This document shows positions 41,580 through 63,133 of a DNA stretch of 64,000 nt, piece by piece. Position 1 is the first letter of the stretch. Every line of letters starts with the position of its first letter. The translations under genes and the position numbers were made by a program. The DNA comes from a virus. Taxonomy: Duplodnaviria; Caudoviricetes. The stretch lies in IMG/VR virus record IMGVR_UViG_3300033463_000010, positions 96,001-160,000 of that record; one strand, given 5' to 3'. The notes under the pieces were generated by a model, which saw nothing but the letters and a program-made list of their open reading frames with translations, made no database searches and had not been told where the DNA came from.

Positions 41580-41935
41580 GTTCGTCCTGCGGGAGCGTCG
41601 GAGTTTCAGCAGGAACCGTCGTCGCTTCCGTGTTTTCCTGGCTGTGCTTCTTCTTATAGAGCCAGGTGCTATACGACATACCGTGAATGCGTTTGAACTT
41701 GTCAAGCCATTTGCGTTGCCGTGTAACGGGCTTTTCTGTGGGAGGGTTAAGGACTATGCCATACCTGGCTAGGTCCTTTTCTGCGTGTTCAGCTATCCGC
41801 TGTTGGAGTAGCTTGTAGAAATTTACGGGTTCGTCTGCCATATCGTGTTATCCTTGTCGGGAGTTTATAATAAATATATAACAATTTACTATAATCTGCC
41901 AACAGGTAATCCACAGAATGCTGTCAAAAATGTAG

Positions 41936-42022
41936 CGGAGCGGGCAGGATTCGGACCTGCGGTGAGCAAAACCCACGGCTCTTTAGCAAAGAACTGCCAT
42001 AGACCAGCTAGGCGACCACTCC
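41936..42022 (-). tRNA. tRNA-Ser(GCT)
   Basis: cloverleaf, long variable arm, anticodon loop TT-GCT-AA, G73; T-loop TCCGAAT; no encoded CCA. Confidence 0.9.
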
Positions 42023-42033
42023 AAAAATGTTAG

Positions 42034-42116
42034 TGCCGATTGCAGGATTCGGACCTACGAAGACTTGCGTCGGGTGATTTACAGTCACCTGCCTTTGACC
42101 GCTAGGCTAAATCGGC
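42034..42116 (-). tRNA. tRNA-Tyr(GTA)
   Basis: ggtga-CTGTAAA-tcacc, long variable arm; T-loop TCCGAAT. Confidence 0.92.
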
Positions 42117-42124
42117 ATTGTTAG

Positions 42125-42198
42125 CTCTACCGCCACGATTCGGACGTGGACTCTCAACGCTTAACAGGCGTGGGTTTTACCAATTAAACTACGGCAGA
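42125..42198 (-). tRNA. tRNA-Asn(GTT)
   Basis: acgc-CTGTTAA-gcgt, G73; T-loop TCCGAAT. Confidence 0.9.
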
Positions 42199-42205
42199 AT
42201 AATTC

Positions 42206-42279
42206 GGGGAAAGTGTGGGAGTCGGACCCACCTCACACATACCGTGATATGTGCAGTTCACCACGACGCTAAAGTTCCC
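42206..42279 (-). tRNA. aberrant tRNA-like element, undetermined anticodon
   Basis: T arm gtggg-TCCGACT-cccac; even-sized anticodon loop (cacat-ATCACGGT-atgtg); mismatched acceptor stem. Confidence 0.55.
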
Positions 42280-42292
42280 AAAAATGTTTTCG

Positions 42293-42401
42293 TGGACACC
42301 CTCCGATTTGAACGGAGCGTTCCGTAATACTTTCGCAGCGTCCTATCCTTTCTTTTGGCGTTTTGCGATACCTTACGGCAGGTCCCGTAGCCACGGTGCC
42401 C
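42293..42401 (-). ncRNA. 109-nt tRNA-like RNA with G3:U70 acceptor and a long irregular helix in place of the anticodon arm
   Basis: GGGCACC/GGTGTCC-A acceptor, T arm ctccg-TTCAAAT-cggag, helix CCGTAA/TTACGG plus TCGCA/TGCGA. Confidence 0.7.
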
Positions 42402-42412
42402 AAAATGTTTCG

Positions 42413-42485
42413 TGGAGCGTATCGGACTTGAACCGATGACCTCCCGCTTGCAGGGCGGGCGTTCTACCAACTGAACTAACGTCCC
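42413..42485 (-). tRNA. tRNA-Ala(TGC)
   Basis: cccgc-CCTGCAA-gcggg, G3:U70, T-loop TTCAAGT. Confidence 0.92.
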
Positions 42486-42489
42486 ATAG

Positions 42490-42562
42490 TAGTTCCATAG
42501 GGATTCGGACCCTAGTCGCTAGGTTGAAAACCTAGTGTCCTAGACCACTAGACGATGGAACC
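42490..42562 (-). tRNA. tRNA-Glu(TTC)
   Basis: ctagg-TTTTCAA-cctag; T-loop TCCGAAT. Confidence 0.9.
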
Positions 42563-42574
42563 ATAATTTGTTCG

Positions 42575-42649
42575 TGCGACGGGGTGGATTTGAACCACCG
42601 ACACGAGGATTTTCAGTCCCCTGCTCTACCAGGCTGAAGCTACCGCCAC
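42575..42649 (-). tRNA. tRNA-Phe(GAA)
   Basis: gga-CTGAAAA-tcc; T-loop TTCAAAT. Confidence 0.93.
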
Positions 42650-42658
42650 ATAAAGGCT

Positions 42659-42692
42659 AAACAAAAAACCACGTTGCTTGTCGCAGCGTGGC
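42659..42692 (-). terminator. intrinsic terminator (attenuator) between leader peptide and first tRNA
   Basis: gCCACGCTGC-gacaa-GCAACGTGG-TTTTTTGTTT. Confidence 0.85.
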
Positions 42693-42725
42693 TTCCTGTT
42701 TAACCCTTGAAAAACACTTGGAATA

Positions 42726-42812
42726 TCACCACGACTGCGAATACGCAAAATAGGCTTCGGCAAAACTAGCCTCGGCTTCAAAATAAAAGTTATTTGCGTA
42801 ATTCTTGTTCAT
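42726..42812 (-). CDS. tRNA-operon leader peptide MNKNYANNFYFEAEASFAEAYFAYSQSW
   Basis: translated by hand (below ORF-track cut-off); AGGA RBS 8 nt upstream; composition matches downstream tRNAs. Confidence 0.85.
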   Translation of the reverse strand: MNKNYANNFYFEAEASFAEAYFAYSQSW

Positions 42813-42835
42813 AGTGATTTTCCTATACGTCGCCT

Positions 42836-42864
42836 AATATAGATTATTCGGGAACCCGTGTCAA
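42836..42864 (-). promoter_or_regulatory. tRNA-operon promoter TTGACA-N17-TATATT (lacks the AGGTA box and inverted repeat)
   Basis: direct match. Confidence 0.85.
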
Positions 42865-61894: not shown

Positions 61895-63133
61895 CTACCC
61901 ACACTTTAATGTTGTGCAGGTTTCCTGCTTCATAGAACCACTACTTTTTAGGTCTATCACTAGACGGTCATCCATAGGCGGGTTCTCCCCAGGCTTACTT
62001 TCGGGTGGAACGCACCCTACGTCTAAAAGTCTTAATCCTTCATCAAGTATGTTCCTGGCTGCGTTTATATCCCTGTCGTGATGAACTCTACATTTAGGGC
62101 ATACCCACTCACGAACATTTAGTGCCATTGATGACATTACGTGTCCGCAATGGTTACAACGCTTGCTAGTAGGACTCCACCTATCCACTACAATAAGTTT
62201 TCGTCCATACCAACCGCACTTGTATGACAGCATAAACCGTATCATTGAGAACGAACAGTCCGATACGGACTTGGCTAGGCTATGGTTCTTGAGCATACCT
62301 CTAACGTTCAAGTCCTCTATGCAGATTATGTCGTTCTCCCTAACTAGCCTTGTTGTCAATTTATGAAGGTAGTCTTTTCTTCTGTTGCCTAGTTTTTCAT
62401 AGGCGGTAGCAAGTTTAAGCCGTGCTTTCTCACGATTCTTGCTGCCTTTAGATTTCTTTGAAAGAACTTTCTGTAAATGCTTTATACGCTTTTCGGAGTT
62501 CTTCAATAAGTGCTTGTTTTCAAACTTTTCACCACTTGAAGTGATGATTAAATCCTTAACACCCAAGTCAAGTCCTACGCAACTACCTGTATGTTCGTAT
62601 TCTTGAACTTCTACATCGCAGCATACAGACACAAAATACTTATTTGTGTTCGTCCGCTTAATAGTTAAGTTGCGGATTTTCTTGATTTTAGACAAATCCA
62701 GGTTCTTGTAATTTCTAAACCTAACCCACTTGATTACAGGTATGAATATCTTGCTGTCCTTGAACAGTCTATCGGGTGTATTAGGCATTGAAGTGTTATG
62801 ATACTTACCTGCGTGAGTCTTTTTCTTGAATTTAGGAAAGCCTATATCCCCACCCTTCTTCAAGGATTTATACCAATTCTTGAACGCCCGTTCTAGTTCT
62901 ATTTTAGCATAGTTTAGGCATTGGCTATCTACTTCTTTCATCCAAGGGTAGAAGTCTTTGAGCGAACTCCAATTCGGACTGAAATTCTTAACCCCATAAT
63001 CACGATACAAGGTAATCTTCGTATTTAACATAGCATTATAGGCTACACGTTCAGCACCGATGCACTTATTAAAGAACACCGCTTGTGCTTTCGTAGGGTT
63101 TAGTCTTAACTCTATGCCTTTTGTAACTACCAT
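61895..63133 (-). mobile_element. tnpB: solo IS200/IS605-family TnpB (IS1341-like) with overlapping 3' omegaRNA region
   Basis: N-terminal LRLNPT..Q..F....G..R..YN, RuvC GLDLG / IEDL / DRDINAARNI, CxxC..CxxC; no tnpA nearby; AT-richer than flanks. Confidence 0.92.

Follow-up and report, generated by a model that had tools for sequence, protein, structure and literature searches.

A leader peptide matched in composition to the tRNAs encoded downstream suggests ribosome-mediated attenuation of a tRNA array in a rumen phage

Organization of the locus

The DNA analysed here (the window) is a stretch of 64,000 nt, positions 96,001 to 160,000 of the viral record IMGVR_UViG_3300033463_000010. The complete record measures 213,231 nt (47.7% GC), has a 255-nt end overlap and, by profile matches, encodes a Gp23-type major capsid protein, an amidase, RecA and a family A polymerase. 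The source is a large rumen phage, and DNA almost identical to it is present in gut metagenomes from cattle, sheep and other sources. The locus is absent from the cultured phages searched; the nearest capsid matches are ~30% identical. A related contig and a TnpB homolog come from assemblies labelled 'Clostridia bacterium', which may reflect binning; some ORFs we take to resemble Fibrobacter lipoproteins, and a Pfam search gave no match for them. The window itself contains an IS605/TnpB-family gene (61895-63133, - strand), of which an 87%-identical paralog lies elsewhere in the phage genome.

On the minus strand a promoter, a 28-codon ORF and an intrinsic terminator precede six canonical tRNA genes, interspersed with two optional tRNA-like elements (Table 1). 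An earlier note, made from the sequence alone, had described promoter, AGGA site, ORF, terminator, tRNA order and both non-canonical elements, and every one of these was recovered at the positions it gave; the two elements are optional among relatives. Genome-wide, seven tRNAs were called: the six of the array plus a distant tRNA-Met. Just 20 nt separate the promoter from the end of the upstream gene, which encodes 128 aa; searches with it gave no viral relatives and, among proteins, near-identical ones only. Downstream of the array all relatives carry a 93-aa gene (41841-41560, - strand; 51-99% identity) with a promoter-like site of its own at 41902-41873. Between array and gene no terminator was called on the array strand, and the product has no match in Pfam, PHROG or Atlas.

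Table 1. Features of the leader and tRNA array in the window.
Feature	Position	Strand	Remarks
Sigma-70-type promoter, TTGACA-17-TATATT	42864-42836	-	11/12 consensus matches; best in a 4-kb scan
RBS AGGA	42824-42821	-	Part of segment 1
RBS/start codon (segment 1)	42809-42824	-	Arm of the protector hairpin; predicted to pair with 42734-42720 if untranslated
Leader ORF, 28 codons	42726-42812	-	Sensor codons ~4-21 are confined to Asn, Tyr, Ala, Phe, Glu and Ser(AGT)
Final four codons, stop codon and following 6 nt (segment 2)	42720-42740	-	Forms the protector with segment 1 or the antiterminator with the 5' arm of the terminator
Intrinsic terminator (segments 3 and 4, U tract)	42659-42692	-	Stem 42692-42668; U tract to 42659
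tRNA-Phe(GAA)	42574-42649	-	ARAGORN and Rfam
tRNA-Glu(TTC)	42489-42562	-	ARAGORN and Rfam
tRNA-Ala(TGC)	42412-42485	-	ARAGORN and Rfam; C at position 33, U in all relatives
109-nt tRNA-like RNA (optional)	42293-42401	-	No Rfam or ARAGORN call
Aberrant tRNA-like element (optional)	42205-42279	-	Anticodon loop of 6 or 8 nt, i.e. not 7 nt
tRNA-Asn(GTT)	42124-42198	-	ARAGORN and Rfam
tRNA-Tyr(GTA)	42033-42116	-	ARAGORN and Rfam
tRNA-Ser(GCT)	41935-42022	-	ARAGORN and Rfam; reads the invariant AGT sensor codon

All six tRNA genes (41935-42649) lack an encoded 3' CCA, so a CCA-adding enzyme is needed; several have the T-loop TCCGA or TTCAA in place of TTCGA. The anticodon arms of all six differ greatly in sequence from one relative to another, the pattern expected under nuclease evasion. 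The 109-nt RNA combines D-like and T arms with an acceptor stem that bears the alanine identity elements G3:U70 and A73; a long stem-loop replaces the anticodon arm, an arrangement that recalls the tRNA-like domain of tmRNA without the message. Identity as a tmRNA was rejected: the genome has no RF00023 match, ARAGORN called none, and the element is only 109 nt long. It occurs in seven other loci (L028, L059, L061, L066-68 and L070), with one compensatory acceptor pair, and a search of viral contigs for this Ala-acceptor RNA gave no match. A full tmRNA is encoded in one related phage (L029, about 890-1245), ~2.4 kb upstream of the array. The aberrant element is confined to near-identical strains and folds no better than shuffled sequences (z = -0.56). 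Two kinds of ORF interrupt the array in relatives: one of 265 aa between tRNA-Ala and tRNA-Asn (L058:3070-3867, L060, L089), with a weak PHROG match to HNH endonucleases, and one of 221 aa that replaces both of these tRNAs (L074:1194-1859, L079) and has no family match. Both are likely to be homing-type insertions.

Composition of the leader peptide

Twenty-four of the 27 residues that follow the initial Met (N4, Y4, A6, F4, E3, S3) are amino acids of the downstream tRNA set; the six commonest residues of the leader are exactly those of the six canonical tRNAs. Codons 4-25 specify no other residue and codon 16 is AGT: a recount agrees on each of these points with the earlier note. The same six amino acids account for 33% of the phage proteome, which gives the leader composition a binomial P of 3e-9. 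Among 173,893 stop-free stretches of 27 codons in the genome, at least 22 in-set residues were found only where the stretch overlapped the leader ORF, and from 38,760 sets of six residues the tRNA set alone covers 24 leader residues (1/38,760).

Conservation among related leaders

Related leaders were found via the 93-aa downstream gene, contig look-ups and DNA patterns, and amount to 15 distinct sequences with a mean identity of 79% (lowest 67%). All 15 keep the promoter hexamers (one as TTGCCA), 13 bases of the spacer differing by 51% pairwise, and all retain the RBS, an open frame of 27-28 codons and the terminator. The only Ser codon of the sensing region is AGT in 15/15 leaders, and the Ser tRNA always has the anticodon GCU. 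Fifteen changes were counted in codons 4-23: ten are synonymous, three exchange Tyr and Phe within the set and two lead out of it. The synonymous excess (at least 10 of 15) has P = 4e-5 to 6e-4, and divergence at codon positions 1, 2 and 3 is 0, 7 and 17%. The sole indel within the ORF is an extra in-frame Phe codon in the window; beyond the stop codon indels of 1-4 nt are common. Judged by these substitution patterns, the leader reading frame is under purifying selection.

Selection on the frame could also act on the peptide itself, as a functional product or as a ligand-sensing arrest peptide of the TnaC, ErmC or SpeFL type, in which residue order matters and not codon supply. Residue order in the core is indeed strongly conserved and the changes are chemically conservative; the in-set substitutions, being Tyr/Phe swaps, are equally expected of a functional peptide (P about 0.1). 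This explanation leaves the identity with the tRNA set unaccounted for, and the in-frame Phe insertion of the window is tolerated. In arrest peptides the arrest motif is usually C-terminal; here the C-terminal residues are the most variable part (32% pairwise) and follow RNA pairing (below). We consider it very improbable that the peptide as such is the object of selection.

All six tRNAs are present in the same order in 12 related loci, and one further locus is cut off after tRNA-Phe. The tRNA bodies have often been exchanged for alleles of only 51-68% identity, with anticodons and order unchanged; thus it is the anticodon set that persists. Two lineages have each lost two tRNAs. In one (L044-47) tRNA-Asn and tRNA-Tyr are missing, and the leader retains three Asn codons and two Tyr codons (three in sister sequences). 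In the other (G001/L079) the 221-aa ORF stands in place of tRNA-Ala and tRNA-Asn, neither of which has been relocated elsewhere in G001, and the leader peptide is identical to that of the six-tRNA locus L062. Recent losses are thus not mirrored in leader composition; that both losses look recent is suggested by leader DNA nearly identical to that of six-tRNA sisters. Loci that retain the tRNAs behind a leader of unrelated composition, which the earlier note named as a ground for refutation, were not found among the relatives; the two lineages with losses, however, keep almost the same leader, so that over short times the match is not followed.

An exact leader-start pattern matched viral contigs 12 times, always by chance and at sites without tRNAs. 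In a search for a host attenuator from which the leader could have been captured, a strict leader pattern matched, across 185,579 genomes, only a syntenic contig of phage type. A diverged host copy may have escaped this pattern.

Competing helices in the leader RNA

The 181-nt leader folds far more stably than shuffled sequences (z = -8.2). The earlier note had proposed that the last four codons pair, with one bulge, with the 5' arm of the terminator; we find 12 base pairs, interrupted by a single bulge, between 42740-42728 and 42692-42681 (about -20 kcal/mol). For the window, pairing of equal quality is reached by only 0.3% of stretches drawn at random from the genome and by 0.05% of shuffled ORFs. 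A second helix, which had been missed, joins the RBS and start codon (42823-42809) to the end of the ORF (42734-42720). Added to antiterminator and terminator, this protector hairpin completes a three-state switch of the trp type.

The consequences of ribosome position were modelled on the window sequence by masking ribosome-covered bases and computing the probability of the terminator. The predicted probability is 0.98 for the untranslated leader, ~0 while any of codons 2-21 occupies the A site, 0.5 for codon 22, 0.93-0.98 for later positions and 0.98 at the stop codon; ribosome footprints of +6 to +15 nt move the predicted edge of read-through by only a codon or two. The range of codons 2 to ~21 coincides closely with the approximate codons 2-20 suggested before. 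For all relatives displayed, the untranslated leader is predicted to form the terminator with a probability of 0.96-0.98, and 70-100% of the terminator arm would be captured before the 3' arm emerges. At full equilibrium the terminator is predicted to win in most relatives, and read-through there therefore requires a kinetic trap or control.

The end of the ORF falls into four sequence classes with differing last residues, each of which pairs best or near best with the terminator arm of its own class. Scored by a matrix of duplexes, no other of the 24 permutations does as well as the cognate one, and with only four classes the chance is 1 in 24. The residues at the ORF end thus follow RNA pairing, which explains the off-pattern final codons (Q, W and TCG) in the way that the earlier note had supposed. 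Tests on shuffled sequences gave 0.05-3% for the window and modest values for single relatives (0.5-21%: 0.005-0.09 for pairing and 0.05-0.21 for synonymous recoding). RNAalifold, applied to a MAFFT alignment, recovered protector and terminator; the antiterminator is not scorable in this way, its arms shifting register. Compensatory changes in the terminator occur at columns 151, 152, 154 and 156 of alignment A1, and in the L044/L062 lineage an insertion at the RBS/start codon accompanies the change in segment 2. One recombinant (L073) has a mismatched, weak protector helix; its antiterminator and terminator are still cognate. A sheep-rumen RNA contig that ends at 42663, within the U tract, was not counted: only one study yielded it, and the tRNA-Phe repeat is a point at which unitigs break.

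Could the terminator simply end upstream transcription, or act as a fixed leak, the tRNAs being made by constitutive read-through or with the help of a phage antiterminator protein, and ORF and pairings being incidental? The proximity of the upstream gene end, only 20 nt before the promoter, and the equilibrium preference for the terminator in many relatives are in keeping with such an arrangement. Against it stand the conserved promoter, purifying selection on the ORF, co-varying alternative helices and the match in composition, and we regard it as extremely unlikely.

Matched leaders before other phage tRNA arrays

A blind survey covered 45 tRNA clusters (some duplicated). They lie in 29 viral loci, retrieved by tRNA patterns, whose only resemblance to the window's phage is in their tRNAs. 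Most of the 45 have no matched leader. In one locus (L040; oriented position 385, - strand) a 25-codon ORF with Leu, Ser or Asn at 16 of 24 residues precedes a Leu-Leu-Ser-Ser-Asn array (P = 5e-7). Another (L026) has three leader-terminator cassettes, at 1556, 9355 and 11082 (+ strand), before the sets Arg/Leu/Gln, Lys/Ile/His/Val and Tyr/Pro/Ser/Trp/Cys; the second and third of these were combined from adjacent clusters after inspection. The three leaders match their own arrays at 12/25, 14/26 and 14/29 residues versus 2-5 for the other arrays. All leaders of these two loci are followed by a terminator, and an antiterminator folded in only one. L018 has a weaker candidate for a composition-matched leader with terminator before its tRNA array.

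These leaders bear on a further alternative, namely that the locus is a real attenuator that senses general slowing or uncoupling of the ribosome, through any block to elongation, the codon match being a historical trace. Read-through is predicted from a stall anywhere in codons 2-21, and the leader has hardly changed in the two lineages that each lost two tRNAs. Those losses look recent, however, the leader DNA being almost as in six-tRNA sisters; moreover, the six-way match has been kept over 15 leaders despite exchanged tRNA alleles, and the different arrays of unrelated phages are preceded by differently composed, matching leaders. A sensor of general slowing is improbable on this evidence.

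A model for conditional tRNA supply

Very probably, the locus is a ribosome-mediated attenuator of the trp type: a six-input OR gate with product feedback, whose output is the set of tRNAs that it senses. We infer that the 28-codon ORF is translated while RNA polymerase transcribes the leader. Where decoding is fast, the ribosome would reach the last codons, the terminator would fold and transcription would end before tRNA-Phe. Where charged tRNA for Asn, Tyr, Ala, Phe, Glu or Ser(AGY) is short, a pause in codons 2 to ~21 would leave the end of the ORF free to take the 5' arm of the terminator, and the six tRNAs would be made. Left untranslated, the leader would pair its RBS and start codon with the end of the ORF, and the terminator would form. 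Since the tRNAs produced would relieve the stall, a negative-feedback loop would result in vivo, and synthesis of the tRNAs is probably restricted to times when their supply to ribosomes is short. The logic of stall and read-through was already that of the earlier note; the complete and conserved anatomy, the selected frame, the co-varying antiterminator and the folding model are consistent with it.

To a stalled ribosome an absent tRNA and an uncharged tRNA look alike, but tRNA synthesis cures only absence: loss of tRNA would thus be the likelier selective trigger. Amino-acid starvation, one of the purposes suggested previously, is unlikely because extra tRNA would not cure it. The likeliest trigger would seem to be loss of tRNA bodies during infection, by a tRNA-cleaving defence of the host or by general RNA degradation, and the source could be either host immunity or the phage's own takeover. 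Tentatively, and with a little less than even confidence, we propose that codon-matched leaders are the phage's detector of tRNA-destroying host immunity, that each tRNA block is an on-demand, self-limiting replacement kit, and that leader composition records which tRNAs are attacked in the host concerned.

The reason for tRNA genes in phages is a matter of decades of debate, in which codon compensation is set against replacement of tRNAs that have been destroyed (PMC10264068). If the leader senses decoding of exactly the codons that its tRNAs read, phage tRNAs would be a conditional response to shortage, and a leader fusion would report directly what opens the supply. Matched leaders could also predict the tRNAs destroyed by host defences and help to annotate tiny ORFs missed by gene callers.

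Comparison with known systems

Defences that destroy tRNA-Tyr, and rescue by phage tRNAs, are documented: the tRNA-Tyr of T5 counters retron-Eco7 (PMC11555353) and a phage tRNA counters PARIS (PMC11464382); evasion through the anticodon loop has been hypothesized for phage tRNAs (PMC10264068). The present array may likewise replace host tRNAs destroyed by defence nucleases. Those cases, however, are explained by a strong promoter or a resistant sequence, whereas supply from the present locus appears conditional; the string 'attenuat' is absent from PMC11555353.

The cryptic trn operon of Anabaena PCC 7120, a TrcR-repressed tRNA array induced by translational stress (PMC8421152, PMC10272220), is the nearest regulated tRNA array and is similar in that a normally silent array is switched on under such stress; PMC8421152 makes no mention of attenuation or a leader peptide. 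It differs in using a protein repressor at initiation, with no codon-specific sensing described. T-box riboswitches sense tRNA charging and control a terminator; they bind uncharged tRNA directly and have no ORF. The phage leader is ORF-based, and identity as a T-box was rejected, there being no Rfam match at E <= 1.

Known leader-peptide attenuators include multivalent ones, such as thrL and the ilvGMEDA leader, and the attenuator of the pheST synthetase genes. The pheL leader is treated in PMC3082878. With the attenuators of amino-acid operons the phage locus shares a promoter, a short ORF with control codons matched to the downstream genes and, by computation, protector, antiterminator and terminator helices, and it is likewise predicted to read through on stalling and to terminate without translation. 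Unlike them, it is phage-encoded, has six inputs that are interleaved and not in runs, targets tRNAs in place of biosynthetic enzymes, transporters or a synthetase, and would relieve the stall directly through its output. It works like the trpL, hisL, thrL and pheST leaders but stands outside their strict families because its targets are tRNAs. No published description of attenuation of tRNA genes was found in a search that was thin on subscription journals. An attenuator with tRNA output would appear to be a new form of ribosome-mediated attenuation, one in which the mechanism gains a further class of targets and the product truly feeds back on its own synthesis.
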